From positions 1 to 61,756 of IMG/VR virus record IMGVR_UViG_3300042888_000791: 61,756 nucleotides of DNA; one strand, written 5' to 3'. The position numbers were made by a program, and so were the translations under genes. Origin of the DNA: a virus. Taxonomy: Duplodnaviria; Caudoviricetes. Shown piece by piece: positions 4,033 through 48,559 of this stretch (position 1 is its first letter; the number at the start of each line of letters is the position of its first letter). The notes under the pieces are model-generated. The model made no database searches. It was given only the letters and a program-made list of their open reading frames with translations, and had not been told where the DNA came from.

Positions 4033-4280
4033 CAAATTGTCCTGAATGTGCAGATATTCCTACTATTATAGCAGAGATAGATTGCAAACTTTCTGAAATG
4101 AGTAATTCATTATATAACAATATAGTGTTTATGCTTAATAAATCATTTAATTCTGAAGTAATGTCTGACCTTTTAAAATATAAAAGGATATTAATGTTTA
4201 AAGTTTGTAACCCAAACTATGCAGGACATTTTACAGTGAATATGATTGCAAATAAAATCAAACTTTTAAAATTTAAATAA
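4014..4280 (+). CDS. Hypothetical protein (CxxC)
   Basis: 88-aa ORF coupled to its neighbours. Confidence 0.65.
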   Translation: MLTPRLTNCPECADIPTIIAEIDCKLSEMSNSLYNNIVFMLNKSFNSEVMSDLLKYKRILMFKVCNPNYAGHFTVNMIANKIKLLKFK

Positions 4281-8289: not shown

Positions 8290-9516
8290 ATGTCTGAAAG
8301 TAAAAATTTATTATTTCAATTAGAAAGTTTACTTTCTAGAAAAAAAAGTAAAAAGTATTATGCTAGTATACTAGAAATCACTGAATTAGAAGTAAATAAT
8401 TTACTTTTAGAATTAAAAAAAGAAAAAACTTTTACTACAGCTGAACCTGAAAAATTGTGTTCTACAAAAACTACAAAAGTAAATAATGAAAAAGGTACAA
8501 TTGAAAGTACAATAGTTATAAACTTTGAACCAAAAAATGATATTGAATTAGCTGAATTACATAAAATTGATTTAGATAAATACATTATAACTAACTATTG
8601 GTCTAAAATGTTACCAGGTGGAAAATTTACTTCATCTGTTTTTAGTAAAAGAAAACAAGCAGAAGATTATTCTCAAAAAGATTTTTCTAAATTTTTAGAA
8701 ACTTATATTCCTAATATTGTAGAAAAATATATTAAAACTTTAGATGCAACAAAGAAAAATGTAGATGTAGAAATATCTCTGTCAGATTTTCATTTAGCTA
8801 AAAGACATATTGATGGTGATAATAGTACAACAGAAAGAGCACTAAGATATTTTAATGTAGCACAAGAACTAATACATAAGGTAAGAGCTATATATAATAT
8901 AAACACTGTAGTACTTCCTATATCAAATGATTTCTTTCATACTGATAACTATCAAAACCAAACTACAAATGGTACACCACAAGATACTATAATGGACTAC
9001 TCACAAGAGTATGAATTAGGTTTTAGTATTCTTGTAGATACAATTAATATGCTTAGAGCTAATGCTCTTCATGTTAAAGTGGTATTAGTACAAGGTAATC
9101 ATGATAGAACTAAATCTTTTTATTTAGCACATGCATTGGATGTATTTTTTAAATCTGCAGTAGATGTAGATTTTATAAGAGAACATTCAGTTATTAAAGG
9201 ATTAACACTAGGTAATACATTTATTGGTTGGCACCATGGTAACTGTAAATTAGATGATCTTCCTTTATTATTTGCTACATCTACAGAATATAGTCAAGCA
9301 TTTGGTAATGCTAAATATAGAGAAATACATACAGGCGATAAACATCACTATATGGCTAAAGAATTAAAAGGAGTAAGAATACAACAAATGCCCAGTTTGT
9401 CTGGTGCAGATAGATGGCATTCAGATAATAATTTTGTTCACTCAGTAAGAGCTGCACTAGCATTAGTATATGATACTTATCTAGGTAAGGTAGCTGAGTT
9501 TGAATCTAGAATATAA
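8290..9516 (+). CDS. Calcineurin-like metallophosphoesterase with N-terminal extension
   Basis: Motifs SDFH, NDFFHTD, GNHD, HHG and GDKHH in canonical order. Confidence 0.85.
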   Translation: MSESKNLLFQLESLLSRKKSKKYYASILEITELEVNNLLLELKKEKTFTTAEPEKLCSTKTTKVNNEKGTIESTIVINFEPKNDIELAELHKIDLDKYIITNYWSKMLPGGKFTSSVFSKRKQAEDYSQKDFSKFLETYIPNIVEKYIKTLDATKKNVDVEISLSDFHLAKRHIDGDNSTTERALRYFNVAQELIHKVRAIYNINTVVLPISNDFFHTDNYQNQTTNGTPQDTIMDYSQEYELGFSILVDTINMLRANALHVKVVLVQGNHDRTKSFYLAHALDVFFKSAVDVDFIREHSVIKGLTLGNTFIGWHHGNCKLDDLPLLFATSTEYSQAFGNAKYREIHTGDKHHYMAKELKGVRIQQMPSLSGADRWHSDNNFVHSVRAALALVYDTYLGKVAEFESRI

Positions 9517-33500: not shown

Positions 33501-36500
33501 TCAAGAAGATAGTGTAGCACTGGAATTACCTAAAGCATCATTATCTGAATCAATAATAGATGGTGTTAAAATACAAGGATATAAATTATTAAACTTTAGT
33601 AGAACATTTGCTACTGTATTAGATAAACTTTCTAATACAACCAATGTTTCTAATGCTGTTGATAAATTAGCTAAGTTAGCTGAGTATGATGCTAACTATG
33701 TTAGACTTTTTGCTAGAGTATCTAAACAAACAAATCCTAAAATAGGTATTAGTAGAACTATTCCTTTTAGTGATTTTGATCATAATGACTGGAGATTTTT
33801 TATTCAGTTTATGCAAACATTTACTAAACAAAAACCTGAAGCATTAATACAATATGTTTCAGCTGAAGGAACATATACAGGTCCTGCTAATTTATATACA
33901 GCAATTAAAACAACTCAAAATAATTGGATTGAAAATATAAAAACACTTGCTGCTACACCAGGTAATTTAGTAACTAGATCTGGTAATGTATATCAAATTA
34001 AAAGTTTTCAAGGTAGAATAGATCAAGACCAATCAGGAAAATGGAGAGCTATATCTCCTTATGGTGATATTACATATCATAAATCAGAAAAAGAAGCTAC
34101 TGAAGAAGCTAAAGATTTAAGTATTAAAATTAGATCAGGAAAAGACCAAGTTAAATTCTTATCTGAATTAGGTATTGAGTTTCCATATGATGTATATACT
34201 AAATTAAAAGCTAGTCAAAAAAATATATTTGTACAACAAGTTACATCTATATATACATACTTTGGTGAAAATAATGACCTTATGAGTCTTTCTGGTAAAA
34301 CATTAAAAATTAATGGTCCTCTTTCTAAATTAGCTGAATTACTTAATAAAGTAACAAATCCTAATCAAGATTCTACATATTTTGGTGTAGAAGGTCAAAG
34401 AATAGGTGCATTTGCAGAAAACAATGCTCCATCATTATTTGAGAATATGTTTAATGAAGTGGATACATTAGAAGAACTTTTAAAAGCAAGACCAGAATTA
34501 AATGACCTTTATTCTAATGGTAGTCAAGTTCTTAAAAAAGGAGGATTGTTTTTTGATAAAGAGGGTAATAGAATTAAAACTATGAAAGTATCTTATATTC
34601 AAGGTACTAAATTAGCAGATGATAATAAAGGAATTGCTACATCTAATTTAACATTAGGTGCTAGATTTACACAAGAAATAAATCAAAACTTAGATGGTAA
34701 CTATTATATAATTATTCCTGCAGATGGATCTACAGAGTGGATGATGAACCTTGGTAATAACATTGAATTAAAAACTATTAACTCAGCAAAATCTTGGTCA
34801 CAAATTCACACAGTATTTAAAGGATATTTGAATGATGATGTTGCTTTAGCTCTTGATTATAAAAATAGAGAAAAATTAAATAATATTGGATCAGGTCAAA
34901 GAATAGCAAAACTTCAAAAAGAATTTGATATTCTATATGACAAAAAAGATAAAACAGTTTCAGAAAAGAAAAGACAAAATGAAATATCTGAAGAGATATT
35001 TAAATTAGTGGATAAATCTAAACAACTTAGATTCTTTAAAGAAATTTTATTTGATAAACAATTAAATAAAATTAATGAAATGATTGATGAAAATCAATCT
35101 CAAGAAGAAATTGAAAAGTATATTACTAGTGAAACAAAAAATATTAATAAAGCTATTACAGAATATATTAATAATACAGTTGAAAGAACAAAAGAAATTC
35201 TTCTTGAAAATAATGAAATTACAATGCAAGTAAAAAAAGATGTTATAACTTATAGTTATGATAATCTTGATATGACTGCACTTAATAAATCATTAGGTAA
35301 AAATGCTTTAAACAATAAAAAATTAACTGAAAGTAATGTTAATGATATTTTGATATATGTTAATGTTAACTATATTATTAATAATATTGAATACCATAAA
35401 GTGTTATTTGGTGATCCATTTCAATTTGCTATTAAAAAAGATGGTTCTTTAGATGAACCAAAACGTATTAAATCATTTTTATCTCCAAGAAGAACTACTT
35501 TTGATACTCCAGAGTATAATACTTTTTTAAATGATGAAATGAATAATGTTAATGGTATCCAATTAAAACCCGGAGATCCAGGATACCATCAATATAAGTC
35601 TTATACTAATACATTAACAGTTAAAGATATTAATATAGTGGGTAGTCTTGCTAATTTGGTAGAAGCTTATGCTGGAACTAATGAAGCAGATGCTATGTCT
35701 TGGTTAATGGATAATACATACAAAGAAGTTAAATTAAAAAATGGTCAATGGAGTGAAGAAGCAGAGGATTTCCACCAATGGCAAATGGCTTTTACAAGAC
35801 AAAATTTACCTGGCTATAAATATTCTTCAACAGAATTAGAAAAATTAGATAGAGAATTAGTTTCTAAAAAATCACCAAAACATACACTAGAAATTTTAAA
35901 ACCAATTGTTACAGGTAATAAATATAATAAAGACCAATTTGATCTTGTTTTAGATAAGTTTTCTCAAATGCCTATTTACTATAGTATGGTAAAAGGTACT
36001 AATATGGAAAAACTTTATATTCAAATGATGAAACAAGGTATGGGTTATGCTATTGTAGAATCTGGAAGAAAAATTGGGGCTGAAGAAATGCACTCTTTAT
36101 ATAATGAAGATGGTACATTTAATGAAGAAGCTTTTAATAATAAAGTACAAATTCCATGGAAAGCATATGGTATTCAAGTGGAAACAACCACAGAAGGTGA
36201 AAAAGTACAAACAAGAGGTTCCCAGCTTACTAAAATGGCTAGTATGGATTTATTTGATAATGGTATAGCTACTAGTGTTAAAGCTCAACAAGAGTATGAA
36301 AGAAATACTAATTTATTAAATTTAATGCATGAAAATGCATATAATGAATTACTTATTAAATTAGGTATTACTGAAGAAGATGGTGATTATACAATGGAAA
36401 ATGGCAAGTCTGTATCTGAGACTTTGATGCATGAAATGATGCGTAGAGAACTTTCTGATAATGCTATTGATACAATTGCACTTAATGAAGAAAATCAATT

Positions 36501-39500
36501 CTTAATTCCATTTGAAGCATCTCCTTCCTATATACAAATAAGAAGTATTATATACTCAATGATTGCTAAATCACTTACTTCTCCCAAAGTAGCAGGTGGT
36601 GCGCATGTACAGGTTCCTATTACTATGTTTGAAAAAGCATCCGAAGGAAGAAGTCTTATGAATAAAAATAAAAAAGGTGTTTGGGAAAAAATTAGTAAAG
36701 ATAAATATAAAACTCTTACAGCTGAAGAAAAATCTAAAGTGTTATTAGGCGATGATACACTTAAATTTTATGTAGATGAAGACGGTAAACGTTATTGTGA
36801 AATAATGGTTCCTCATTGGTTTAAAACTAAGTTTGGTAATATGACTGATGAAGAAATATTAAATTACTTAAATACTGAAGAAGGTTCTAAAATATTATCT
36901 GGTATTGGATTTAGAATACCTACACAATCACTTTCTTCTGTTGAAGTATTTAAAGTGAAAGGATTTCTTCCACAATACATGGGAGCAACTGTTGTAGTGC
37001 CTTCTGAGATAACAACTAAAGCGGGATCTGACTTTGATATTGATAAGTTAAATATGTACCTTAAATCAGTTTATACTGATGTTAATGGTAATGTTAGATT
37101 AGTTACATATAAAGGTTCTGAACAACAAACTAAAGATTTTTATGCACAAGTATTTGAAAATACAATTCAAAAAGAAATTAATACAATTACAAAGTATGAT
37201 GAATTTAGAACAATTTTATTTTCAATATTTGATACATTAGAAAGTCTTAATACTAATCTTTCAGAAAACCAACAAGATTTTTATTATGCTCATGGTAATA
37301 TGATTGATAATATTATTTTACAAGCTGATAATGAAGATATGTTACCTTCTGAATACATGCTAAATCAAATAAGTACTTTAGCAGGTAAGGAAGGGATATT
37401 AAATGCTAAATTATTATCCACAACATTAAAAGATAAATTTGTAAAAGAGATGTATAAAAAATCTCTTGAAAATGAATATTATGATTCATTAGAAAAATTA
37501 CTTACACTTCCTGAAAACTTTTCTAAATTAATAGCACCAGTAGGTGATGCTGGTTTAAAAGCTTTAGCTAAGCGTTTAGATGATTTACAAGGGTATAATG
37601 AAACAAGTGTTAAAAATAGATTGTTAGATAGAAATTATATGACAAATTTAAGACACTCATTTGTTGTAGCTAAAAAATGGGTAGGGGTAGCAGCTGTTAA
37701 TATTACTAATTTATCATTAAAACAAAAAAGTAAAATATATATTGATCCTACTAGATTTGAAAGTTTATCTAAAGAAGATAAAAGATTTATTGGAGATGGT
37801 ACAATATTATTAGACCATAATACAGTAGAAATAAATGGTGTAGATTATATTTCTTTATCCGGTACTACAGTAAAAGATAGTGACGAATTAATTTCTAGTA
37901 GATATTCTGGATATGCAACAGCATTTGTGGATGTAGCTAAAGATCCATTTATTATGAAAATTATTAAATCTGATTTAGTTATTGGTACATTTATGTTTTT
38001 AGAAAACATTGGTGCTGGTGAACAAGCAGCTTTCTTTTTAAACCAACCTATTATACAAGAGTATTTAAAACTATTAGATGCTAAAAGTTCAAGATGGTTA
38101 TTTACTAGAAAAAATATTACAGCTGTAAGAGAAAAGTTTCCAACTACAATTGAATTAATAAATTCTGTTGGTATTGATAAAACTAATTTTGAAAAAAATA
38201 TTACAGATTATTATACACCAGATAATAAATTAAGTGAAGCAAGAAATGCTGAACAACAACTAATATTAGAAGAGTTTTTAAAATATGCTAAAATGGCTGA
38301 GTTTAATTTTAAATTTACTCAAGCTACTAATTATGATACTACTAGATTTGGTAGTGGAGATGAATTTACAAGAAAACAATTAAGAACAGCAGAAGCATTT
38401 TCAAGTAATATTATATCCTCTACAAATAAAATTATGGATAATACTTTTATAGGTGTACAAGAAAACCTTTTAGGAAAATCTATGCAAGCTATGGGTGCTA
38501 TCTTTAAACTAGAAGAAGATCAATTTAGAGTGATAACAAATGCTGTATTAAAATCTTATGGGTTAAATAGCTTTATTGGTGCAGATGCATTTAATAAAAT
38601 AGCTTTACAAGTTAAATCTTCTTTCTTAGACTATATTATACAAACTAAAGTGGGTCTTAATAAAGATATTGAAGCACTTCTTGTTGATGAGTCAACTTCA
38701 GTAGCAAGTAGATTAGAACAAGCTAAAAAAGACTATCCTAATTTAGAAATTATTAGAGATTTACAAGTAGTATCTAGTGATAGAGTGGGTGGGGCAAAAA
38801 GTATTAAACTTAATGTTAATACTAAAGATGCTTATGATGAAAATCTTTATACTGGTTATATGAGAGAAATGAGAGATTATGATGAAAACTTAAAATCTCT
38901 TTATAATGATATTGTACATCTTTCTATATTACAAGGTACATACCAATCTCCTATATCTATTAAAAATATTATTCCAATAGAAGATTACAGTAGAATTGTA
39001 GAACCTATTATTACACCACTTGTAGCTGATGGAGATCTTGAAGCATTTACACAAGGTATGTTCCAAAGAAATAATTTTAAAAATACAGATATATTTCCAC
39101 AATTTCAACCTGCATTTTATGAAACTAATAATGAACCTATAATTGATCAATATTTTAATGAAACATATACATATTCCTCTCCAGCATTTATGAAAATTGA
39201 ATCTTTAGCAATAACACCTAATCAAAGAAAAGTTATGTTATTAGATGTTGAAAAAGATGCATTTAGTATAAACAATGAATTTCTTTCTGTACCTAGAGTA
39301 ATTAGAAATAAATGGAATGGAGATATTGATTTTATAACAGGTCAAACTATTCATCCAGCAGATTATTCTATGAGAAAAGCTAAAGGAGATCTTTCATTAA
39401 AAGATGTATTTGGTTACCAAAAAGTTAGACTTGATTCTGGAGAACCTCTTATTTATTATAAAAAAATAATAAAAGATGGAATAGTTACATATAAAGAACA

Positions 39501-41448
39501 ACATGTTTATAAATTAATTAATTTATATGGTGAAGGGCAACTAGCAACTGAACATTATCCAGATTTTAAAAAATCTGTATTAAATAATGGTACAAGAAAA
39601 ATAGATAATGAAATTCCTAATGCTGAACTTATTAATCATTTTGGTGGTGCAAATCCTTTAGCTGAAAATATAGTTACAGAAGAGCAATTACTTACTGAAC
39701 CAGTAAAAGAAAAACCTTCTATATTTGATTTAAGAAATGTTCCTTTAGATTATACAGAAGGACAAAGAGTAGCATTAAATGATGTAGCTAATATGATTGA
39801 TAGTAATAAACAAAACTATTACTTATTAGCTGGATATGCAGGTACAGGTAAAACAACTCTTACAGAAAATATTGCTAAATATGCACAGGAAAGTGGTAGA
39901 ACTGTTTCTATTCTAGCACCTACTAATAAAGCTGCTAAAGTGTTAAATGATAAATTAAAATCAACAGGTGTTAGTGCCAATGCACAAACAATACATAAAG
40001 CAATTTATGGTGAACCTAATGAATTTGGTGAATGGGTACCAACTGCTCCTCTTAAAAATTCTGTTATAATTGTTGATGAATCTTCTATGATTGATAAAAA
40101 TGTCATGAATGATTTATTAAATAATACTAAAGGAAATAATATTGTTATTTTTATGGGTGATGGTTTTCAATTAGAACAAATTGGTGAAGATTCAAAATTA
40201 TTTACATCACTTGAAAACAAATCTCCATTTGAAAATGAATATGGTGTAAAACTTTATGGCTCTACACAATTAACTGAAGTAAAAAGACAATCATTAGATT
40301 CAGATATATTAAAAGTGGCTACATTACAAAGAACAGATAATAAATCTTATATACCATCTGAAACTGTAGGAGATTTTAAAGTGGCTAAATCTAGAGATGA
40401 ATTTTTAGAAGACTATAGAGAGTCTATTAGAAATAATGATAATTCTGTAATGGTTGTAGCTACAAATGAAGAAAGAATAGCAATGAATAAAATTGCTAGA
40501 ATAGTAAAATTTGGTCCTGATAGAAATGTATTAGAAAATGGTGAAGTATTAATAGCTATTGCTAACTCAACAGATTATTCTAATTCTGAAATATTTAAAG
40601 CTGATACAGTAAGAGATGATTCTACTAAACACACATTAACCTTTACAACTCCTCAAGGAAAAGTAGAAACTTACGATATGTATTTTTCTTATATAGTAGG
40701 AGAAGATGGTATTGAAAGAAAAGTGTTTCATTTTCCAAATGTAGCAAGAGCTAGTATGTATCATGCCCAAGTATTAGATGCTATTAAAAATAGTGATGAA
40801 GCTTTATATGATGAATTAAATAATGACCAAGATATAATTTTTAGTAAAAAAGGAATAGCAAAACTTTCTCCTGCTATTGTTATAGCTACTTATGGGTATG
40901 CTATAACAGGGCATAAATCACAAGGTTCACAATGGGATAAAGTTTTTGTAAATCAAAACTATGTAGCCCCAAGTTGGAATGGTGCTAGATGGTTTTATAC
41001 AGCTATAACAAGAGCAGCACAACAAGTTGAAGTTATGCCTACAGCAAACAATACAAGAATTTCTCCAGAAGAAATTAATAAAAGAATTGATAGTATTGCA
41101 GAAGAGTCAACTCCTATAGAAGAAGTACAAACTGAAGAACCAAAACTTCAAGATAGACAAATACAAGTGGAACAATTTAAAATCACTATTAAACCTGATG
41201 GAAAAATGTTTTATGATAATGGTAAAGAGGTAACAGATCAAACTACTATTAATAAAGTAAATGTAAGAAAAGAATTACAAGATGGAACTTTAAGAACTTC
41301 TATATACAATAAAGCAAATTATTTTGTACTTTTGGATGGTAAAATTGTAGGAAGTGGTAAAACTAATCTTGGAAAAGAAAGCATCACTGATCCTAAAATT
41401 AAAGAAGCAATATTGGCTAAGGCTGTAACTTATAAAAAAGAATGTTAA
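27520..41448 (+). CDS. Giant virion-packaged DNA-dependent RNA polymerase polyprotein with C-terminal SF1B (RecD/Dda-like) helicase
   Basis: RIPTQ...GSDFDIDKL catalytic motif (DFDID at 37030-37044) characteristic of crAss-like RNAPs; helicase motifs GYAGTGKTT, APTNKAA, TIHK, VDESSM, GD..QL, LTEVKRQ, YAITGHKSQGSQW, YTAITRA at about 39750-41035. Confidence 0.9.
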   Translation: MPIFDNELVGNPTEGLTPYFQPKGELASPHTTDVNTSMYFGHTPEQNVTYKGGFTLDQLSEISSVPNKATFDSPFQMIPKSELLANKRYGMYERDKDLENIYSVNQSWGAQLGNGILKMGATAAGTFAQGFATLPNTISAIKNGQLKDLSNPDGYESDIDTWLKNIEDTLPNYYSRHEKEHPFLAAIPGFAGSANFWGDKVIKNIGFTVGAIGSAVAQDALVGLATEGIGEIPLIGAQISKAALYLNKIFSAETKVGRVLGATEKGLLTRTLEAASIEGLSGEALLTTRQLAASASLAKITDAGRYYLNLYGSARTEAAIEARDGYRQIKEELTNQYKLDNYGTDPSIEDTQVIEQYATDAMNTRFGINMAILTVSNAIQFDNMLKPFSTASTKGLTSSLVQDVQKAGKIGLKEGSLDTFEKQIPKTFRGKVWSSVKPTIPLVLSEGIYEEGGQYAAERGTYDYYTRKYKNPTTGKNKQTWDSVDEIINSTVKGLKDQFSTTEGLENMFIGALSSIITGGLMSKVDTIKGQGKDKRLQSSINLLNNNGLTGILQNKYGDTIDAVGIAKDMKEAASSGNIFQYKNLQHKAFFNFVNSRIPSGLHETTIMQLEMLKELDKDQFEKMFGIDFSTSNKSTVNEYVDALVSKANSIKSSVDALDATFKNPYKQVTDPKTDEDHLENYKFNTFNMWKTDLLFDSSIAVDSNNRLDSIEKNSMKINSFLNNDVLAKLTKKESLQTLATTYEENANRLQNTITDLTSAEDRKNIKQQMKTFRTYSERINLDLKDEERSPELFNSLLNFELNNQDSSKDAIVGFEHASTLMTNGVDVNNIKEAKRKAALNFEYLATEKGFDKYFEQQKQIAKDHAETIDIDHEVVPDTPIFINKDKEQEPVELNREYEIKATKRATVKKLAEDRFQVTHPDGTFTYHTTRDLANESAKEITDENTNLSKVKVLAINSDGTLKVEDKNGDIINIDPNRLKGYRRILTDQEKLQKDKEQIKKQQIAISKKSGNIPTPDTSLIDTKEPPLKDKTKLFTSTTTESETWDKAKDSAPHVTRSRAFLNKVKKFNKKIGKVKAILVTSKMEKALGLEGLAAMSYGTNDMSDVNHIQKGFVAAVFTVQDKTGIYFVDEDGNKLSKVREQVDLNKVIFQTMPTTSLTNSKGFPKNRSDQKVEAAAYAKGWGIFREKLFTLDGTQKPKPMEFSVSRGLAKVNSGTRERNQVGGILIDENKIATQEGLIVIPTTGTIAHNNEAVGFPNGVPVLQYADTLEALNNRKFTNTEAKTIFEVIKALADEVVKQSSSNQAIEFNKEYTSFLQNILYWKLGATESDNQIRINEETLSLELGKKTYSFAEIANFEKDIIDQLSKAYISVNNNTLTNNFADEFTEFMFIGNKLIPITWENYQVYLLGSKYPNGSTRKAEETPLVTAVAKPSDSVPYTHIAKYATLEGIEFPIDAVTPAPKQTPVTPPSAAGKFVLDGVTQNKLDIIGFGEITFTAKEGEEPQFDTTSEEYMNVGMKLFDSSNSYRLKQGQPEVKLEELVGTIKEFVTNSIKKAIEVQKIPTPTTYNLEGTAPNTYTIPNFGTVTFTVVEGENPKFDEDAEFKKVQQKFIDAVNKTKPGTPKAKAIDMANAAILALVNKEIGNTVIPQPAVNKPKPGSTIAPSDDFRLVGLEDKDVMTEEEIQLFKEWMNENLPFIPYEILEQIITTNTGDKAWGVFENNVAKFVKGGLKGTEYHEVMEAIWNGMLSPEERNNIIEDERSTGGTFVDRVTGKTYEYADAPEQILKERIMDDFSDYRLGKLPARSLGERIQRFFRAILDFFSSFVSNPSLKEQLFKEVNSGKFKERTLNDSTISNLAEYRAAGELSEQQTNNIVQDMTARAAGILFSEGNLDLLYSPDRITSQEMFNRIEERYASEGRLSLISDNAWKELKEKTKNKLRTLGVGFDTNDQVSINDEEANKNDYAPEPFSVDWKKNSTGPVKFTLATLFEAVASNQEDSVALELPKASLSESIIDGVKIQGYKLLNFSRTFATVLDKLSNTTNVSNAVDKLAKLAEYDANYVRLFARVSKQTNPKIGISRTIPFSDFDHNDWRFFIQFMQTFTKQKPEALIQYVSAEGTYTGPANLYTAIKTTQNNWIENIKTLAATPGNLVTRSGNVYQIKSFQGRIDQDQSGKWRAISPYGDITYHKSEKEATEEAKDLSIKIRSGKDQVKFLSELGIEFPYDVYTKLKASQKNIFVQQVTSIYTYFGENNDLMSLSGKTLKINGPLSKLAELLNKVTNPNQDSTYFGVEGQRIGAFAENNAPSLFENMFNEVDTLEELLKARPELNDLYSNGSQVLKKGGLFFDKEGNRIKTMKVSYIQGTKLADDNKGIATSNLTLGARFTQEINQNLDGNYYIIIPADGSTEWMMNLGNNIELKTINSAKSWSQIHTVFKGYLNDDVALALDYKNREKLNNIGSGQRIAKLQKEFDILYDKKDKTVSEKKRQNEISEEIFKLVDKSKQLRFFKEILFDKQLNKINEMIDENQSQEEIEKYITSETKNINKAITEYINNTVERTKEILLENNEITMQVKKDVITYSYDNLDMTALNKSLGKNALNNKKLTESNVNDILIYVNVNYIINNIEYHKVLFGDPFQFAIKKDGSLDEPKRIKSFLSPRRTTFDTPEYNTFLNDEMNNVNGIQLKPGDPGYHQYKSYTNTLTVKDINIVGSLANLVEAYAGTNEADAMSWLMDNTYKEVKLKNGQWSEEAEDFHQWQMAFTRQNLPGYKYSSTELEKLDRELVSKKSPKHTLEILKPIVTGNKYNKDQFDLVLDKFSQMPIYYSMVKGTNMEKLYIQMMKQGMGYAIVESGRKIGAEEMHSLYNEDGTFNEEAFNNKVQIPWKAYGIQVETTTEGEKVQTRGSQLTKMASMDLFDNGIATSVKAQQEYERNTNLLNLMHENAYNELLIKLGITEEDGDYTMENGKSVSETLMHEMMRRELSDNAIDTIALNEENQFLIPFEASPSYIQIRSIIYSMIAKSLTSPKVAGGAHVQVPITMFEKASEGRSLMNKNKKGVWEKISKDKYKTLTAEEKSKVLLGDDTLKFYVDEDGKRYCEIMVPHWFKTKFGNMTDEEILNYLNTEEGSKILSGIGFRIPTQSLSSVEVFKVKGFLPQYMGATVVVPSEITTKAGSDFDIDKLNMYLKSVYTDVNGNVRLVTYKGSEQQTKDFYAQVFENTIQKEINTITKYDEFRTILFSIFDTLESLNTNLSENQQDFYYAHGNMIDNIILQADNEDMLPSEYMLNQISTLAGKEGILNAKLLSTTLKDKFVKEMYKKSLENEYYDSLEKLLTLPENFSKLIAPVGDAGLKALAKRLDDLQGYNETSVKNRLLDRNYMTNLRHSFVVAKKWVGVAAVNITNLSLKQKSKIYIDPTRFESLSKEDKRFIGDGTILLDHNTVEINGVDYISLSGTTVKDSDELISSRYSGYATAFVDVAKDPFIMKIIKSDLVIGTFMFLENIGAGEQAAFFLNQPIIQEYLKLLDAKSSRWLFTRKNITAVREKFPTTIELINSVGIDKTNFEKNITDYYTPDNKLSEARNAEQQLILEEFLKYAKMAEFNFKFTQATNYDTTRFGSGDEFTRKQLRTAEAFSSNIISSTNKIMDNTFIGVQENLLGKSMQAMGAIFKLEEDQFRVITNAVLKSYGLNSFIGADAFNKIALQVKSSFLDYIIQTKVGLNKDIEALLVDESTSVASRLEQAKKDYPNLEIIRDLQVVSSDRVGGAKSIKLNVNTKDAYDENLYTGYMREMRDYDENLKSLYNDIVHLSILQGTYQSPISIKNIIPIEDYSRIVEPIITPLVADGDLEAFTQGMFQRNNFKNTDIFPQFQPAFYETNNEPIIDQYFNETYTYSSPAFMKIESLAITPNQRKVMLLDVEKDAFSINNEFLSVPRVIRNKWNGDIDFITGQTIHPADYSMRKAKGDLSLKDVFGYQKVRLDSGEPLIYYKKIIKDGIVTYKEQHVYKLINLYGEGQLATEHYPDFKKSVLNNGTRKIDNEIPNAELINHFGGANPLAENIVTEEQLLTEPVKEKPSIFDLRNVPLDYTEGQRVALNDVANMIDSNKQNYYLLAGYAGTGKTTLTENIAKYAQESGRTVSILAPTNKAAKVLNDKLKSTGVSANAQTIHKAIYGEPNEFGEWVPTAPLKNSVIIVDESSMIDKNVMNDLLNNTKGNNIVIFMGDGFQLEQIGEDSKLFTSLENKSPFENEYGVKLYGSTQLTEVKRQSLDSDILKVATLQRTDNKSYIPSETVGDFKVAKSRDEFLEDYRESIRNNDNSVMVVATNEERIAMNKIARIVKFGPDRNVLENGEVLIAIANSTDYSNSEIFKADTVRDDSTKHTLTFTTPQGKVETYDMYFSYIVGEDGIERKVFHFPNVARASMYHAQVLDAIKNSDEALYDELNNDQDIIFSKKGIAKLSPAIVIATYGYAITGHKSQGSQWDKVFVNQNYVAPSWNGARWFYTAITRAAQQVEVMPTANNTRISPEEINKRIDSIAEESTPIEEVQTEEPKLQDRQIQVEQFKITIKPDGKMFYDNGKEVTDQTTINKVNVRKELQDGTLRTSIYNKANYFVLLDGKIVGSGKTNLGKESITDPKIKEAILAKAVTYKKEC

Positions 41449-41449
41449 G

Positions 41450-44400
41450 ATGGCATGTATTTTAGAAATTAAAAAGACAATTAATGAAAGTATAGATAAA
41501 CAGCTTCCTTACAGAGAAGTTGTTATGTCTGACAAAGCAGCAAAAAGTATTAGTCAAAGTTTAAATCTTCTTTGGAATTCTGCTATAACAAGAATTGCTC
41601 AATATTCTTCTCAAGGAGGATATAGAGTAATAGTTAATTCTATAGAAGATGCTGCACAAAAAGAATTAAAAAAACAACAAGAAGCAGAAAAACTTTTTGA
41701 AAGAGATCTTGCATTTTTTAACGGAGATGAAGCTTTATTAGAACAAGAAAATCCTAAAGAAACATTTTATCAAAAAAATCAAACAATTTCTTCTGAGGGT
41801 AAAATAGCTTCTGAAAAAACTATTAGAGATTTGGCAGCAAGAATGTCTGATAGAATTGGTATGCCTTTTAAAATAGAATCTGATAGAACTAAAGAATACA
41901 AAGGTAAAATTGAAAATGGTGTAGCTTATGTTAATTTAGCTTATGCTACATTAGACACACCTATACATGAAATATTAGGACATCCTATTATTAGAGCTAT
42001 TAGAGATAGTGTTGATGAAAGAGGGGACAATGTATTATATCAAAATCTATTAAAAGAGCTTGAATACGGTGTAGGTGGAGAAGTGTTAGATAGGATTAAA
42101 AAAGATTACGTAAATAAACCAATAACTGAATCTAGTTATACAGGAGATGGTAGTGATTTTGAAAGTTGGAAAAAGAGTAATGTTGGAAAAGATAGTAGAT
42201 TTAAATATTCTTTAAAAGAACAACAAGAAGAAGCTCTTGTAGAACTTCTTGGTATGATGACAGCAGATAAACTTGATAATGTTAAAGATGGTAAATTAAT
42301 TTCTTTATTAAAAAGACTTCTTAAAGAAATAAAACAAGTTATTAAATCTCTTATTAAACAAAGAGAAGTGGAGATAGAAAATCTTCCTGATAATTTAACT
42401 ATTAATGATTTATCAAATCTATTAGCATATTCTAATAGTAAACTTATACTTCCAGGATATGAAGTAGAATATACTACTCCTGATAATATGAAGTTTAAAA
42501 CTTATCAAGAAGCTAGTAATCACATTAGTGAATTAGCTAAAAGCACTGAAGAGATTGATTTAAGTAATTTTACTCCAGTTAACAAATGGAGAGTAACAGG
42601 CATAAGCTGGGGTTATAACCAAGATGGTTCTGTAGAACAAAATGGTTATATAAATGAAGAATTTGACACTAAAGAAAAAGCAGAAGACTTTTATAGTCGG
42701 ATGAATAATACAAAATATGCAGGAGAGTTAACAATAAATAAAGCAAATTCTTTACCACAATCTTTTATAGATAAAAATAAAGAATACGAACAATCTAAAG
42801 AGATTGTAGAAGAATGGAAAAAAGTAAATAACATTCAATATAACCCTGAAGAAATATATTCAAGAGGACAAGAATTTAGTTCTGTAGTTGGAGCTTATTC
42901 TGATTTTGATGTAAATCTTATGATGCAGAATCTTCTGCAACATATTGAAGATAATGAAAAAGCTGGAGGTAAATTTGCTATATCTGCTTACACTAAACCT
43001 GTAGATAAAACTATAGGACATTTAGAAGGTGGAGGAGGTAAAATTAAGTTTAAAATTTATCCTAAATCTGAGGATATTTTGTGGGCAGCTAATACAGATG
43101 TTTATTCTGGTTCAGTATGGGATGCTTCTGAAAAAGTAAATAAAGATAAACAATCTGAATTATTAGGGGTTAGTTATACAAAATATCCTTCTATAAGAAA
43201 CATTAATGCAGTGCAGTCAAATCTTGCTTCTATTGTAGATGATTTAGCTCATCATCATAATGAATTAGGTATTGTTTTAACAGGTAATAACTTTAGACTT
43301 GAATATGATGAGGATATACCTTATCAAACTAAAAAAATTATTGATGGTATTAATTCTATTCTTGATCAGAAGTATGGTAAATTAGTTAAACCTGAGATTA
43401 AAAAAACTGATGTTTGGAATGTCTTTAGAGATAAAGAATATAAACAATCTTTTAATACAGAGAAAGATGCTGAAGAATTTATTAAAAAACAAAATGTACC
43501 TTATTTACACTCTATAAAAAAAGAAGTTTTAGGTGTTAAACCAACTCAAACTAATGAAAATACTACACACATTAATACAATTAAACAAAATGCTGGTTTA
43601 GTATCTTTATCATTTAATGAACAAGAAAAAGCAGTTTTAGAAAAAGTTGGTAATGTATTCTATCAAGATGGTATTAAAGTAGAAATTATTGAAGGTGACA
43701 ACAATAATCCAAAAAAAGTATATTTAAATGGTGTTGATACACCTTTATACAAAGAAGATTATGTTAATTTATTAACTGAAAAATATAAAGAATTATTTCC
43801 TTTTCCAAAAAAAGAATTTACAAATCAAGCTTTAATTAACACTAAAATAGCTAAACTTAAAGAAGTGGCTAAAGCACAACCAAGAAGCTTAATTAGAAGT
43901 GAAGTTATTGAACAACGTAAAGATTATACTAGAGGACAACAAACTTGGGATCCTGATTTTGAAGAATTGCCATTTCAAAAAATACCTTCTAAACTTAATG
44001 AATCTAAAACTATTAGTTCAATAGCCAGTAAAGAAACTATTGCTAAAGTTAAAGACTTTTTAAAACGTATAGGTGTTGATATAAGCTCAGCAAAAGAAAT
44101 AATAGTAAATGGTAAAAGAATAGATGCAAATGCTATAGCTAATATAACACAAGCTTTAATACAAGTTGTAGAGGGTAAAGAAGCACAATCTTTACCAGAA
44201 GAAGCTATGCACTTTGCTGTAGAAATTCTTGAACAGACTAATCCTAAATTATTTAATCAACTATTAAAAGAAATAGGTAATTATGCTTTATATAGTGAAG
44301 TGTTATCTGAGTATGCTAAAGATCCTAATTATCAAACTAAAGAAGGTAAACCTGACATTAGAAAGATTAAAAAAGAAGCTATAGGTAAAGTGTTAGCAGA

Positions 44401-47400
44401 AACAATTATTAAACAAGCAGAAGATATAAATGAAAAACCAGAATTGTTAACTAAAGTTAATTCTTGGTGGAGTCAAATATTAGATTATTTAAAAGGCTTA
44501 TTTAGTCAAAGTGGTTTTGATAAAGTTGCTATGGATATTCTTTCTGGAAAAAATATAGGGACAGCTGCAGATATAATAGCAGAAGAAGGTTCTGTATATT
44601 TACAAAAATCTAAACAAGATGATATTTATGATAGTATAAAAGAACTAGGAGAAACAATTACACCCACAAATGAAGGTTATTCTATAGATGGTAAACCTAT
44701 TAAACGTAGAGTATCTGATATAGTAAAAGATTGGTATGATAGAAAATTTACAAACAAGTCTTTAGTAGCTAGTGATTATGAAAAAGCTGTTAATGATTTA
44801 AAAGCTGAAAAAGGAACTGCTGGGCATGCTGCATTTGAATATGCTTTTGATTTATTTGTAGATGCTGATGGTTATTTAAGAGAAGATGAATTACCAGGTA
44901 CAGATTATGAAATTAAAAACCCTAATTTTCCTTTAGATTTTTATTTAATATTAAAAGAAAATCTTAGACAACGTCTTAATTCTTTTCCTAAAGATAATGG
45001 TGGTACAAGATTTATGGCTGAAGCTAGAATATATGATGCTAAAAGAGATCTTGCAGGTACAGTGGATTTTTTAGCTATTACTCCTGAAGGAAAAGTAAGT
45101 ATATTAGATTGGAAGTTTATGGATCTTAATATAGAAAAATATACAGATATTCCTTGGTATAAAGTAAATGCATGGAATACACAAATGGAACAATATAAAC
45201 TTATCATTGGAACAGTATATGGTGTTAAACCGGAAAACTTTGAACAAACAATGATGATTCCTATTAAAGCTATCTACACACAAGGTAATCCTAAGGAAGG
45301 TATTATGCCTAGACTTGATGGTATTAATATAGGTGATGTTAATATTAAAAATATTGAAGAGGATTATTTAATTCCTGTTGGATTAAAAGAACAATCTACA
45401 GGCATTAAAAAAGTAGATGATTTATTAGAAAAATTAAATGCTATTTACAAAAAACTGTCTGATCAAAAAGTTACAGAAGAAACTAAAACAGCAAAAGCTG
45501 AACAATTAAATGCTTTGTTTTCTGCTATTAGACAATTACAGATGAAACAAAATGTTATTCCATTAATTAATCAGGCTAAAATATTAAATAAACAAATTGA
45601 AAATCTTTTTGCACAACATGAAACAGAATTTAAAGATAAAGAAATAAATGATTTTAAAGATAATGAAATTGAAGATTTTACAAAAAAAATTGAAACTTTA
45701 AGAGAAGCTATAGAAGTATATTTAAATCTAGACCTTGAACTTAAATTTTTATTTGAAGGTGAACAAACTACTGAAGACAAAGAATTAAAACAAGATCTTA
45801 GAGATGTTGTAGATAATGCTAGAGATTATTATGATAGGTTAAAAACACTAGATGAAGAATTTACTGTTAAATTTATAGGTGGTACATCTACTGCAGAAAA
45901 AGTAGTTAAAGGTCTTGCAAGAATGTTCGGTACTACAGCAACTATTCAATTAGAAAGTCTTTCTGCTTTATATAAAAAAGCTAATAAAGCTTTTGGTTTA
46001 GCTGGTATGGATACCAGTACAGAGATTAAACGTCTTTCTGATTTAAAAGATGCATACCAAACATGGGCATTATCTAATGGTTTAACAATAAAAAATCAAT
46101 TTAATATTCTTAAAAAAGAAGATACAAATGAACTTATAGATGAATTTAATCCTGAGTTTTATTCTCAGTTAAAAGAAAAAATAGCTTTAAAAGATTTTTC
46201 TTGGATTAGAGCTAATATTGATATTCCTGGTTATAGAGAATTTTTAAAAAAGAAAAAAGAAGAAGAATATGATAGAATTGACTCTAAACTTAGAGTAGGT
46301 ACAGAAGAACAAATAGCTAATGAAATAAAAAGAGAAACATTTAAAGCTGAACAGTTATATAATACTAATGAACCAGAATCGGTTGGTTGGTTATTATATG
46401 ATGATATATCTAAGTATCCTAAAAGAGCAACATGGGAGTCTGATCAATGGAAAACTCTTAATAAAGATGAAAACAAACCCGCTCTTGATTTTTATAATTA
46501 TATTAGAGAGCGAAATGACTATTATAGATCTATAGGGTATATTCATGCTAAACAAGCTAGAATTTTTCTTCCTTGGGTAAGAAAAGGCCTTGCTGAAAAA
46601 ATGATTTTTGGTGGTAAAATAACTATAGGAGAACAGTTTTTAAGAAATATATCTGTAGATGAAGGTGATACAGGTTATGGCCAAATAGACCCTTTAAATG
46701 GACAACCTATTGATACTATTCCTATTTATTTAACAAGAAAATTAGAAGGAGAAGTATCTACTGACCTTTTTAAAACTATGGCAATGTATAATGAATTTGC
46801 AATTAAATTTAAATATTTATCAGAAATTGAAGGACAAGGTAGAGCATTAATACGTCTTGAAAAAAACAAAAAAGCTATTGCTACTTCTATGTTTAGTAAA
46901 ACTGAATATAAAAATAATGTATTACAATTTAATCCAGATAATAGTCAAAATACTAAACTTGTTGCATCAATGGTTAAAGCTATTATATACCAACAAAAAT
47001 ACGTACAAAATGAAACTTTTGATCAATTATTAGGAAATCTAGGAAGCTATGGTGAAAAAATAAATGCTAAACTTGGTAGAAAAATATTTCCAGAAGATTT
47101 AAAAGATAGACAAGTTAGTATTAATAAAGTGATTACTCAAATGAATAATACCTTTCAATTAAATGCTTTAGGTCTTAATGTTCTTTCTTCTCTTTCCAAT
47201 TTATTTGGTGGTAAAACACAATCATTTATTAATTCTGGCAAATGGTTTACTAAACAAGATTTTATAGCTACAGAACAATGGTTAGCTGCAGGTAAAATGG
47301 GAGGAAATGATAGACAAAAATCATTAGCAGCTATGGATTATTTTATGCCTTTTATTGCAGATTATAATAAACAAGCAATGCAAAAACTATCACTATCAAA

Positions 47401-48559
47401 ACTTAATGATCAAGCTGTTCAAGAATACTTAATGGTAATGATGAGAAAAAGTGAGGAATTTGTACAAACAACAAACTTCTTTAGTTTTTTAAGAAATTCA
47501 ATTATACAAGATGGTAATATTATAAATACAAGAGAGTATTTAAAATCTACAGATGAATACAAAGATTTTTATGCTGGTTCTCAAGAAGAAAGAACTACTA
47601 GAGCAGCTAAATTTGAAGCAGATGTAAAAGATTTAAATGCTAAACAAGGGGTAATGGCTTTAAGTACAGTAGTAAATGGTGAATTTGTAATCCCTGGAAT
47701 AGAAAGAAAATCAGATTCAGTTCTTGAATTAAGAAGAAAAGTACAAAGTTTTACAGCTGATGCATTAGGATCAATGGGTGAAGATAATAAACGCCTAATG
47801 AACATGACTGTTTATGGTAACTCTATGATGTTATTTAAAAATTGGATTCCTAGGCTTGTAGATGTACGTATGGGTAATTTAAAATATAATTCTGCTTCTG
47901 ACGCTTATGAATGGGGTAGAACTAGAATGATAGCTAGAATATTTTCAGAAGATTTACTTGGAGCTATTGGTAATTTAAAAAATTCTTTACTGGGTAATGA
48001 TAAAGGTATAGATTTTCTTAGACAACTTTATGAAAAAAAGAAAAATGATTATGAAGCTGATACTAATAAAGAATTAAAAATGACCGAAAGTGAGTTTATA
48101 GATCTTACTAAACAAAATATTAAAAATCAATTATTTGATTTATTAGCATTAGCAACAATGTGGTCATTATATTTAGGATTAAAAGCTTTAGCTCCCGATG
48201 ATGATGAAGATCCTGCAGTTAAAAATCAATATAAATTTTTACTAAAAGCAACTGATAAATTTAAAGATGAATTACAATATTTTTATGATCCAACAAGTAT
48301 ATCACAATTAGTAGGTAAAGGTATATTTCCTTCTTTAGCATTATTAGAAAATTATGCAAAAATTATAAAAAACTTTATGATTGAAAATTATGCTATTGTT
48401 TCTGGTAACGAAAAATTAGAACAAAAAAATTATGTTATTAAATATTTAATGAAAACTTTTCCATTATCTAGTCAAGCTGCTAGTTTAATGCCTTTATTTT
48501 ATCCTGCATTAGCAAAAGATCTTGGTATTAAAGCACAGTCTCATTACAATATTAGATAA
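41450..48559 (+). CDS. Giant cargo protein with zincin-like domains and a PD-(D/E)xK nuclease domain
   Basis: TPIHEILGH...EEALVE and a degenerate EEAMH...KEAIGK; GTAGH...AE..I...AGTVDFL...ILDWKF...QMEQY at about 44700-45270. Confidence 0.7.
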   Translation: MACILEIKKTINESIDKQLPYREVVMSDKAAKSISQSLNLLWNSAITRIAQYSSQGGYRVIVNSIEDAAQKELKKQQEAEKLFERDLAFFNGDEALLEQENPKETFYQKNQTISSEGKIASEKTIRDLAARMSDRIGMPFKIESDRTKEYKGKIENGVAYVNLAYATLDTPIHEILGHPIIRAIRDSVDERGDNVLYQNLLKELEYGVGGEVLDRIKKDYVNKPITESSYTGDGSDFESWKKSNVGKDSRFKYSLKEQQEEALVELLGMMTADKLDNVKDGKLISLLKRLLKEIKQVIKSLIKQREVEIENLPDNLTINDLSNLLAYSNSKLILPGYEVEYTTPDNMKFKTYQEASNHISELAKSTEEIDLSNFTPVNKWRVTGISWGYNQDGSVEQNGYINEEFDTKEKAEDFYSRMNNTKYAGELTINKANSLPQSFIDKNKEYEQSKEIVEEWKKVNNIQYNPEEIYSRGQEFSSVVGAYSDFDVNLMMQNLLQHIEDNEKAGGKFAISAYTKPVDKTIGHLEGGGGKIKFKIYPKSEDILWAANTDVYSGSVWDASEKVNKDKQSELLGVSYTKYPSIRNINAVQSNLASIVDDLAHHHNELGIVLTGNNFRLEYDEDIPYQTKKIIDGINSILDQKYGKLVKPEIKKTDVWNVFRDKEYKQSFNTEKDAEEFIKKQNVPYLHSIKKEVLGVKPTQTNENTTHINTIKQNAGLVSLSFNEQEKAVLEKVGNVFYQDGIKVEIIEGDNNNPKKVYLNGVDTPLYKEDYVNLLTEKYKELFPFPKKEFTNQALINTKIAKLKEVAKAQPRSLIRSEVIEQRKDYTRGQQTWDPDFEELPFQKIPSKLNESKTISSIASKETIAKVKDFLKRIGVDISSAKEIIVNGKRIDANAIANITQALIQVVEGKEAQSLPEEAMHFAVEILEQTNPKLFNQLLKEIGNYALYSEVLSEYAKDPNYQTKEGKPDIRKIKKEAIGKVLAETIIKQAEDINEKPELLTKVNSWWSQILDYLKGLFSQSGFDKVAMDILSGKNIGTAADIIAEEGSVYLQKSKQDDIYDSIKELGETITPTNEGYSIDGKPIKRRVSDIVKDWYDRKFTNKSLVASDYEKAVNDLKAEKGTAGHAAFEYAFDLFVDADGYLREDELPGTDYEIKNPNFPLDFYLILKENLRQRLNSFPKDNGGTRFMAEARIYDAKRDLAGTVDFLAITPEGKVSILDWKFMDLNIEKYTDIPWYKVNAWNTQMEQYKLIIGTVYGVKPENFEQTMMIPIKAIYTQGNPKEGIMPRLDGINIGDVNIKNIEEDYLIPVGLKEQSTGIKKVDDLLEKLNAIYKKLSDQKVTEETKTAKAEQLNALFSAIRQLQMKQNVIPLINQAKILNKQIENLFAQHETEFKDKEINDFKDNEIEDFTKKIETLREAIEVYLNLDLELKFLFEGEQTTEDKELKQDLRDVVDNARDYYDRLKTLDEEFTVKFIGGTSTAEKVVKGLARMFGTTATIQLESLSALYKKANKAFGLAGMDTSTEIKRLSDLKDAYQTWALSNGLTIKNQFNILKKEDTNELIDEFNPEFYSQLKEKIALKDFSWIRANIDIPGYREFLKKKKEEEYDRIDSKLRVGTEEQIANEIKRETFKAEQLYNTNEPESVGWLLYDDISKYPKRATWESDQWKTLNKDENKPALDFYNYIRERNDYYRSIGYIHAKQARIFLPWVRKGLAEKMIFGGKITIGEQFLRNISVDEGDTGYGQIDPLNGQPIDTIPIYLTRKLEGEVSTDLFKTMAMYNEFAIKFKYLSEIEGQGRALIRLEKNKKAIATSMFSKTEYKNNVLQFNPDNSQNTKLVASMVKAIIYQQKYVQNETFDQLLGNLGSYGEKINAKLGRKIFPEDLKDRQVSINKVITQMNNTFQLNALGLNVLSSLSNLFGGKTQSFINSGKWFTKQDFIATEQWLAAGKMGGNDRQKSLAAMDYFMPFIADYNKQAMQKLSLSKLNDQAVQEYLMVMMRKSEEFVQTTNFFSFLRNSIIQDGNIINTREYLKSTDEYKDFYAGSQEERTTRAAKFEADVKDLNAKQGVMALSTVVNGEFVIPGIERKSDSVLELRRKVQSFTADALGSMGEDNKRLMNMTVYGNSMMLFKNWIPRLVDVRMGNLKYNSASDAYEWGRTRMIARIFSEDLLGAIGNLKNSLLGNDKGIDFLRQLYEKKKNDYEADTNKELKMTESEFIDLTKQNIKNQLFDLLALATMWSLYLGLKALAPDDDEDPAVKNQYKFLLKATDKFKDELQYFYDPTSISQLVGKGIFPSLALLENYAKIIKNFMIENYAIVSGNEKLEQKNYVIKYLMKTFPLSSQAASLMPLFYPALAKDLGIKAQSHYNIR

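Follow-up and report, generated by a model that had tools for sequence, protein, structure and literature searches.

Phages of the crAss-like group are among the most abundant phages known. An experimentally described relative of the protein considered here is gp66 of Cellulophaga phage phi14:2, an RNA polymerase (RNAP) that is packaged in the virion, accompanies the DNA into the cell and transcribes the early genes, and in which mutation of any aspartate of the DFDID motif abolishes activity (bioRxiv 10.1101/2020.03.07.982082). According to the same preprint, gp66 is efficient in vitro on single-stranded or denatured DNA, weak on the native phi14:2 genome and inactive on double-stranded M13; QDE-1, a structural relative of gp66, requires the helicase QDE-3 and RPA; and how a gp66-type RNAP reaches the entering double-stranded genome is an open question. 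In crAss001, three RNAP-associated proteins, gp47, gp49 and gp50, are virion cargo by mass spectrometry, and this cargo is thought to be ejected partly unfolded (PMC10172136). Here we describe a polyprotein of the gp66 type, encoded by an uncultured crAss-like phage of fresh water in the virus record IMGVR_UViG_3300042888_000791, to which a complete SF1B helicase domain is fused in-frame. The entire 61,756-bp record (29% G+C) was analysed and is referred to as the window; related complete records are 104-121 kb, and the stretch is present in lake and freshwater metagenomes, with no RNA data set among those listed as containing it. The polyprotein, the RNAP core and the helicase with its motifs lie in the window as follows.

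27520..41448, + strand: giant open reading frame (ORF), crAss-like virion RNAP polyprotein, 4642 aa plus stop
35032..38073, + strand: RNAP core, aa 2505-3518, by homology to phi14:2 gp66 residues 768-1674
37030..37044, + strand: DFDID catalytic metal-binding motif, aa 3171-3175, the sole DxDxD in the protein
39739..41028, + strand: SF1B (Dda/RecD2-like) helicase domain, aa 4074-4503, by Pfam, PHROG, AlphaFold (AF2) and structure matches
39832-39858, + strand: motif GYAGTGKTT, aa 4105
39916-39936, + strand: motif APTNKAA, aa 4133
39988-39999, + strand: motif TIHK, aa 4157
40072-40089, + strand: motif VDESSM, aa 4185
40156-40173, + strand: motif GDGFQL, aa 4213
40270-40290, + strand: motif LTEVKRQ, aa 4251
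40912-40935, + strand: motif HKSQGSQW, aa 4465
40996-41016, + strand: motif YTAITRA, aa 4493

Translation of 27520-41448 (+) gives one uninterrupted reading frame with zero internal stops, in which the order of parts is an N-terminal region, a zincin-like region, the gp66-type RNAP core with DFDID and a C-terminal accessory zone. Outside the helicase domain, the rest of the 4642 aa has no Pfam or PHROG match. The domain at aa 4074-4503 is, as judged from its sequence and modelled structure, a complete and catalytically intact-looking helicase of the Dda/RecD2 SF1B type. It is matched in Pfam by AAA_30 (2.9e-25, 89.6 bits with a cut-off of 27), AAA_19 (4e-22) and UvrD_C_2 (2.7e-12, 46.8 bits with a cut-off of 27.4), and PHROG 325, 'Dda-like helicase', extends across the whole of aa 4074-4503 at 2.2e-66; these motif and profile matches are well beyond chance. 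An AF2 model of aa 4060-4642 has a mean pLDDT (predicted local distance difference test) of 84.6, with values above 90 over the helicase, and its best Foldseek match in the PDB is T4 Dda (3upu_A, E 2.4e-22). With VIA-align, RecD2 (3gp8_A) aligns over 340 residues (Z 30.4, rmsd 3.1) and T4 Dda over 378 of 439 residues spanning 1-439 (Z 26.9). Ranks 1-9 in VIA-align are all RecD2, DSH9, Dda or RecD (Z 22-30.4), with the SF1A helicases UvrD and PcrA at Z ~19-21; because the closest structures are RecD2, Dda and RecD and their accessory domains are covered, the fold is assigned to SF1B and not SF1A. T4 Dda (3UPU) and Deinococcus RecD2 (3GP8) thus resemble the window domain in fold over its whole length and in their set of motifs, but they are free-standing enzymes with 22-24% identity to it, whereas the window domain is embedded as a module within a protein of 4642 aa. 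The N-terminal domain of RecD2 lies outside the aligned range, which begins at chain residue 324-328.

Conservation of the helicase residues is strict. In an alignment of 62 sequences that includes stand-alone relatives, 35 columns are invariant, among them Q, GxGKT, E, GD..Q and two R residues, and the motif residues (Q, Walker A, the D/E of motif II, GD..Q, IV, V and VI) are invariant or at least 90% conserved. All 104 of 104 fused helicases keep Q4082, G4108, K4111, D4186, E4187, Q4217 and R4256, as well as K4466, Q4468, Y4493 and R4498. The only methionine in aa 4030-4104 is M4091, which falls downstream of the invariant Q4082, and this makes it unlikely that a free helicase is produced by internal initiation.

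The protein that carries the helicase is, by sequence homology and by its DFDxD motif, a member of the phi14:2 gp66-type crAss RNAP family. A phmmer search against the PDB aligns aa 2505-3518 with residues 768-1674 of gp66 (6VR4, 6vr4_A) at E 5.2e-19, and places GSDFDIDK of the window opposite GSDFDIDK of gp66, in register. A tblastn search with aa 2400-3900 returns 117 phage records, all below 60% identity and, among the matches listed, crAss-like; phi14:2 g066, annotated 'Catalytic RNA polymerase subunit', is one of them (1e-21). When the gp66 register is projected on the window it covers roughly aa 1740-4030, so that the helicase starts directly after the end of the RNAP. The two proteins share a homologous RNAP core with the DFDID aligned, but gp66 has 2180 aa and lacks both the helicase and the fused N-terminal and zincin parts, its neighbours g065 and g067 being separate genes. 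No PHROG match to TerL, portal or major capsid protein (MCP) is found among the 29 ORFs scanned in the window, and the phage is called crAss-like from its RNAP only.

These results agree closely with an earlier reading that was made from the letters of the window alone (the sequence-only reading). It had listed eight intact SF1 motifs in the same ORF as the DFDID, and each is located as quoted, in a frame without a stop; it had called the helicase complete, in accord with Pfam AAA_30 and UvrD_C_2, PHROG 325 and an AlphaFold model that matches RecD2 and Dda; and its limits of 39750-41035 fall within ~10 nt of the domain at 39739-41028. Its crAss-like RNAP core is genuine, as seen from the gp66 alignment and the register of the DFDID, and the variable accessory domains that it ascribed to crAss-like RNAPs are found as AlkB-like, NADAR, DUF7831 and ART domains in the corresponding slot of relatives. 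It had also proposed checking that no stop or frameshift lies between 37050 and 39750, and contigs of other studies (not raw reads) are free of insertions and deletions there. The survey of RNAP genes for the same fusion, which it had suggested as well, finds it in 90 of 120 listed giant homologues and in the phages cr118_1 and cr50_1.

Two lines of evidence establish that the fusion is present in phage genomes. Four other studies of lakes or fresh water (X2-X5) supplied contigs that tile 36900-41500 with zero inserted or deleted letters, and the junction at 39739 is bridged by record 29 of X5 (39486-40429), record 6 of X2 (39647-40227) and record 13 of X3 (39566-39817); this tiling consists of contigs at ~3-6x depth and not of raw reads. 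Independent of this, and stronger, is the comparative evidence. A search with aa 4060-4642 against giant proteins of 2553-8124 aa gave 147 matches among 1428 scored, of which the best 120 were classified by BLAST and hidden Markov models (HMMs). A near-complete helicase is present in 101 of these 120; in 90 of the 101 an RNAP core is detectable by BLAST (81 of the 90 with DFD[IVLGA]D), and in the other 11 the RNAP query gives no match. The remaining 19 of the 120 have an RNAP core and no helicase, and were retrieved through a conserved module at the C-terminus. The 90 fused homologues are drawn from NCBI, JGI, ENA and Logan, and the closest listed proteins, P0002-P0004, are 4868-4885 aa long and share 86-87% identity over the query region. 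In the IMG/VR loci L010-L012 the DFDxD and the Walker A motif lie in a single open frame, and whole-record scans place AAA_30 matches inside frames of 4391, 4681 and 4832 aa. An assembly chimera of two genes was considered and is rejected, given the junction-bridging contigs and the 90 giant fused homologues.

A search for stand-alone forms (proteins of 320-1021 aa) returns matches of 50-60% identity mostly on contigs of 1-5 kb, which are probably fragments of giant genes. P0129 is a 495-aa match on a 59.8-kb contig, and its IMG/VR relatives are all fused. On a FastTree phylogeny of 212 helicase domains the labels 'fused' and 'short' require 22-24 changes, a number that does not equal a count of independent fusions because the short class includes gene fragments and several long branches are unreliable, including both Suoliviridae rows. 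We are highly confident that an intact SF1B helicase is indeed fused in-frame, as an optional cassette, to an RNAP of the crAss type.

The optional nature of the cassette emerges when the comparison starts from the polymerase. A search with aa 2600-3700 gave 867 matches, and the best 120 of these were analysed. Every one has DFD[IVLGA]D, but the helicase is detected by HMM in just 12; 17 have only other accessory Pfam domains (DUF7831, 2OG-Fe(II) oxygenase, NADAR or cpYpsA), and 91 have no accessory domain. When only proteins of at least 3800 aa are compared, those with the helicase have a median length of 4885 aa and those lacking it one of 4096 aa. On a FastTree phylogeny of the RNAP core (121 rows) the presence of the helicase requires at least eight changes, seven of which are forced by well-supported branches. 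In locus L006 the end of the RNAP is joined straight to the C-terminal module, and in P0096, the nearest helicase-less relative (67% RNAP identity), the slot holds DUF7831 and a cpYpsA-like domain. The helicase is followed by an AlkB-like domain in P0002 and by DUF7831 in P0003, is combined with NADAR in P0020 and with AlkB-like and ART-PolyVal domains in P0051, and lies N-terminal of the DFDxD in P0045, P0070 and P0092. In L007 (IMGVR_UViG_3300032335_000777) aa 2819-3325 of the upstream ORF form a divergent SF1B helicase, 31% identical to that of the window, which sits between the RNAP and the conserved C-terminal module and thus in the same slot; P0094, P0095 and P0097 are similar. On these sequence comparisons the helicase is an optional and exchangeable cassette.

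The C-terminal 300-900 aa of P0002, P0003, P0018, P0020, P0051, P0096 and P0100 hold AlkB-like 2OG-Fe(II) oxygenase, NADAR, DUF7831, ART-PolyVal and cpYpsA-like (SLOG) domains in varying order.

Variation of this kind is also seen within the lake metagenomes, in which co-occurring variants part from the window at ~38801, 39476, 40227 and 40702, the last three being near or inside the cassette. This suggests that several related strains with different cassettes are present in the same lakes. Some co-occurring contigs (runs X2-X5) match the window solely around the DFDID codons (37018-37070).

Two further segments complete the C-terminal zone of the window protein.

41029..41172, + strand: E/T/P-rich linker after the helicase, aa 4504-4551, with low pLDDT and variable in alignments
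41173..41445, + strand: conserved C-terminal module, aa 4552-4642, ...KPDGKMFYDNGKEVTDQT...GSGKTNLGKE...YKKEC, ~91 aa

The linker has pLDDT values below 50 at model residues 474-492 (aa 4533-4551), and in alignments aa 4504-4551 are weakly conserved and differ in length. The C-terminal module is modelled with a pLDDT of 82.8 (AF2), and neither a Foldseek match in the PDB at E <= 0.001 (best 0.42) nor a usable atlas match was obtained for it. It is 54-77% identical in four IMG/VR loci and 70-84% identical in helicase-less giant proteins in which the RNAP core is ~22% identical (P0111-P0116 and P0119), which suggests that it behaves like a second mobile module. We considered the module as a universal boundary of the slot and rejected this, as its GSGKTNLGKE motif occurs in only five of the best 120 RNAP homologues.

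The fusion is already present in RefSeq genomes of the Suoliviridae, under uninformative names. The cr118_1 protein gp14 (YP_010110531.1) has 4946 aa, is labelled 'exonuclease V' and has the helicase at 4462-4907; the cr50_1 protein gp059 (YP_010110216.1) has 4774 aa, is labelled 'DNA helicase' and has AAA_30 at 4249-4448. Both are collinear with the window protein in having a zincin-like region, an RNAP core with DFDID and a C-terminal AAA_30, and UvrD_C_2 is also found in cr118_1 gp14. They differ from it in that identity is only 22-25%, that they come from the human gut and not from lake water, and that no C-terminal module of the GSGKTNLGKE type is detectable by BLAST in the parts of the alignment inspected. 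In both records AAA_30 is matched just once, and the match lies within the giant frame (4949 aa in cr118_1 and 4775 aa in cr50_1). According to a review (PMC10136315), no member of the Suoliviridae has ever been isolated. Since the two proteins form long branches outside the 87-row helicase clade of the window, a shared origin of their fusion and that of the window is not established. The label 'DNA helicase' is also attached to gp01 of cr124_1 (L002, NC_055899.1, 22-7902), which has 41 in-frame TAG codons; we reject it, as the frame read with TAG as Q has a DFDID and no helicase by HMM, and the record lacks AAA_30.

A different arrangement is seen in the Intestiviridae. All five that were examined (cr8_1, cr11_1, cr3_1, cr107_1 and Carjivirus communis, gp14) encode the helicase as a stand-alone protein (~480-490 aa). 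The gene belongs to the replication block, with UDG and the DNA polymerase (PolB) following directly or at a short distance, and its products are 26-30% identical to the cr118_1 domain. In Carjivirus communis, the prototype crAssphage, the one AAA_30 match in the record is in a frame of 492 aa, KP06_gp14. It shares with the window the helicase family, within Crassvirales, and the single copy per genome, but it is a separate gene of the replication block and not part of a virion or transcription block.

The zincin-like region that the window protein shares with the two Suoliviridae proteins is as follows.

32518..33069, + strand: zincin-like region, aa 1667-1850, by BLASTP alignment to cr118_1 and cr50_1

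It has no Pfam match. Its motif in the window is YHEVMEAI (HExxE; ~32710-32733, aa 1732-1739), whereas that of cr118_1 and cr50_1 is YHEAFHRV (HExxH). Of 62 pattern matches in giant proteins, 39 have E and 23 have H at the last position, and in many lineages the putative metalloprotease is perhaps modified or no longer active.

Helicases of the Dda/RecD2 SF1B type translocate on single-stranded DNA, and the role that we consider most likely for the cassette is as a helper of early transcription. The helicase would be synthesised late within the polyprotein, go into the virion and be ejected together with the RNAP, and would in that case be on site ahead of all phage gene expression. It would then work as an ATP-driven 5'-to-3' translocase on single-stranded DNA of the incoming genome, opening the single-stranded template or keeping it open and stripping off bound proteins, and the result would be a boost to early transcription by an RNAP that prefers a single-stranded template, possibly with a head start for early replication. 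As most relatives lack it, the helicase would be an accessory, Dda-like booster and not an essential subunit. To this explanation as a whole, an optional SF1B cassette fused to the virion RNAP that acts as an early-transcription helper, we assign about an even chance of being correct. Presence in the virion and ejection of the helicase part are proposed only by analogy with gp66 and with gp47, gp49 and gp50 of crAss001.

Several considerations weigh against this explanation. The helicase is dispensable, in that 108 of the best 120 RNAP homologues are without it. The related genome G001 (90% complete) has a polyprotein without the helicase and no SF1B helicase elsewhere, only a 28.6-bit match in a frame of 225 aa; G003, also related (100% complete), likewise has a helicase-less polyprotein and no SF1B helicase elsewhere; and whole-record scans find no AAA_30 in cr124_1 or in cr108_1 of the Steigviridae. 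With cassette-less genomes lacking an SF1B helicase, the fused helicase is not a general answer to how crAss RNAPs open DNA. The position of the Intestiviridae helicase beside UDG and PolB points to replication or recombination rather than to transcription. AlkB-like, NADAR and ART domains, the partners in the slot, have no obvious link to transcription, so that the polyprotein is perhaps a mere delivery vehicle, and in that event a functional link between helicase and RNAP could hardly be deduced from the fusion. The identity of the helicase exceeds that of the RNAP core in 46 of the 49 proteins with both, which fits strong constraint and fits equally well a cassette that has recently spread by horizontal transfer. 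For the fused helicase we infer packaging and ejection as well as ATPase activity and polarity. Cleavage of the polyprotein has been suggested (bioRxiv 10.1101/2020.03.07.982082), and it may remove the helicase before packaging.

Other roles for the cassette can be considered alongside that of a transcription helper, and roles in transcription, replication and counter-defence are not mutually exclusive. A Dda-like helicase of replication or recombination, which in other crAss-like phages is an early gene of its own, could have been relocated into the late polyprotein, arriving pre-made or being cleaved off. It would take part in the initiation of replication, the clearing of forks or recombination and have no connection with the RNAP. 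The stand-alone gene in the replication block of five out of five Intestiviridae is consistent with this, as is the finding of exactly one AAA_30 match per record, whether stand-alone (Carjivirus) or fused (cr118_1 and cr50_1); T4 Dda, a replication accessory helicase, is among the best structural matches, and 'SF1 helicase' is named among conserved crAss genes (PMC7886860, PMC11502894). We nevertheless regard relocation as rather unlikely, as fused and stand-alone helicases are just 26-30% identical and a common origin is not established, and as a late protein family of virion cargo is ill suited to a factor that is needed only after the early genes. Cassette-less genomes without a replacement also argue against a core replication factor in these lineages, and the slot hosts in addition domains that are typical of injected conflict proteins. 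This last observation is in keeping with another role, in which the C-terminal end is a cargo bay for effectors of counter-defence or DNA care that protect the entering DNA in the manner of polyvalent proteins. In this role the helicase would remove, or keep ahead of, host nucleases and restriction or CRISPR complexes, or disturb RecBCD as a RecD look-alike, and the AlkB-like, NADAR and ART domains would handle other insults. No target is identifiable, and the anti-defence roles of the partner domains are putative. The range of domains in the slot of relatives (2OG-Fe(II) oxygenase of the AlkB-like type, NADAR, ART-PolyVal, DUF7831 and cpYpsA-like) nonetheless agrees with such a role, as do the patchy and fast-changing distribution on the RNAP tree (at least eight changes), which is typical of conflict genes, the divergence of lake variants near or inside the cassette (~39476, 40227 and 40702) and the alignment of the model to RecD of RecBCD (Z 19-22 in VIA-align). 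Polyvalent proteins are multidomain proteins delivered with the DNA, some of which contain helicases (Iyer, Burroughs, Anand, de Souza, Aravind 2017, PMC5512222), and the window protein is like them in being very large and multidomain and in its presumed entry into the host with DNA; its relative P0051 carries their signature ART-PolyVal domain. The window protein itself has no signature polyvalent Pfam domain at E <= 0.01, and the typical helicase of polyvalent proteins is of the SF2/SNF2 type paired with a methylase (PMC5512222), unlike the SF1B helicase of the window. PMC5512222 mentions neither crAss nor the crAss-type RNAP nor a fusion of RecD/SF1B to RNAP. The window protein is therefore not classed as a polyvalent protein, the resemblance being functional, and a counter-defence or DNA-care effector is in our view an unlikely account of the cassette.

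Two further possibilities carry little weight. In one, the ejected helicase is a motor of genome internalisation that draws the remaining DNA into the cell. Polymerase-driven DNA entry is known for T7 and N4, and this analogy is all that speaks for such a motor, together with the presence of the protein on site at entry if it is ejected. SF1B helicases of the Dda/RecD2 type move on single-stranded DNA and the entering genome is double-stranded, and most relatives lack the domain yet must internalise genomes of ~100-120 kb. Pulling in the genome had been among three roles offered by the sequence-only reading, alongside promoter opening and the displacement of host proteins, and given the single-stranded substrate of SF1B enzymes and the dispensability of the domain it is the least likely of the three; we consider it very improbable. 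In the other, the fusion is an artefact of chimeric assembly or the domain is a decaying, inactive relic. The window is a 61.7-kb metagenomic fragment and the supporting contigs are of low depth, but contigs from three other studies bridge the junction, the fusion recurs in 90 giant homologues (NCBI, JGI, ENA and Logan), and every catalytic residue is retained in all 104 fused copies, so that we give this possibility practically no credence.

The early-transcription helper could also be one part of a more general arrangement. The C-terminus of the RNAP polyprotein would be a hot-swappable cargo bay that injects pre-made DNA-handling enzymes (helicase, AlkB-like, NADAR, ART, DUF7831 and the C-terminal module), in which the helicase is the template-opening motor of the polymerase and its delivery is switched between 'early gene' and 'packaged protein' across crAss families. 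Such a motor would explain how an RNAP that requires single-stranded DNA in vitro starts on a double-stranded genome. We offer this wider picture as speculative and doubtful. The sequence comparisons do suggest that phages load the capsid in advance with enzymes for DNA processing or counter-defence. The fusion is real, optional and recurrent in freshwater phages and gut Suoliviridae, is one of a larger collection of enzyme modules that are exchanged at the end of the polyprotein, and as a natural joining of RNAP and helicase provides a direct test case for how an RNAP gains access to double-stranded DNA. The labels 'DNA helicase' and 'exonuclease V' on crAss proteins of ~4800 aa mask the RNAP and need correcting.

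An 'SF1 helicase' is listed among conserved crAss marker genes in figure legends (PMC7886860, PMC11502894 and PMC13558084). In the portions of the literature available to us, a fusion of an SF1 helicase to the crAss RNAP is nowhere described in the text, and figures or supplements may show it; the word 'helicase' is absent from the 2023 Crassvirales review and from the crAss001 structural atlas. The picture of a zone of exchangeable cassettes may be the part that is new.

The polyprotein lies in a block of giant ORFs beside structural genes. Its neighbours are ORFs of 1930, 753, 1389, 875 and 2369 aa, the last of which follows it directly.

41450..48559, + strand: next giant ORF of the transcription/cargo block, 2369 aa, from the ORF list

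This ORF has no PHROG match in the profile scan and is 47-56% identical to the ORFs downstream of the polyprotein in L006 and L007. The polyprotein itself aligns with P0105, which lacks the helicase, over 4169 residues at 47% identity. Matches in the PHROG scan to tail, virion-structural, peptidoglycan-hydrolase and endolysin genes are found in its surroundings.

Among other genes of the window, we note that the 1389-aa ORF at 20623-24792, upstream of the polyprotein, contains a stretch like L-alanyl-D-glutamate peptidase at aa 392-458 (PHROG 2307, 5.5e-13) and is probably a hydrolase of the cell wall that is carried in the virion. A 408-aa 'DNA repair exonuclease' ORF at 8290-9516 (PHROG 704, 7.7e-50) lies amid structural genes; the structural block of crAss phages has been reported to include a nuclease, though one of the PD-(D/E)XK type (Yutin et al. 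2021).

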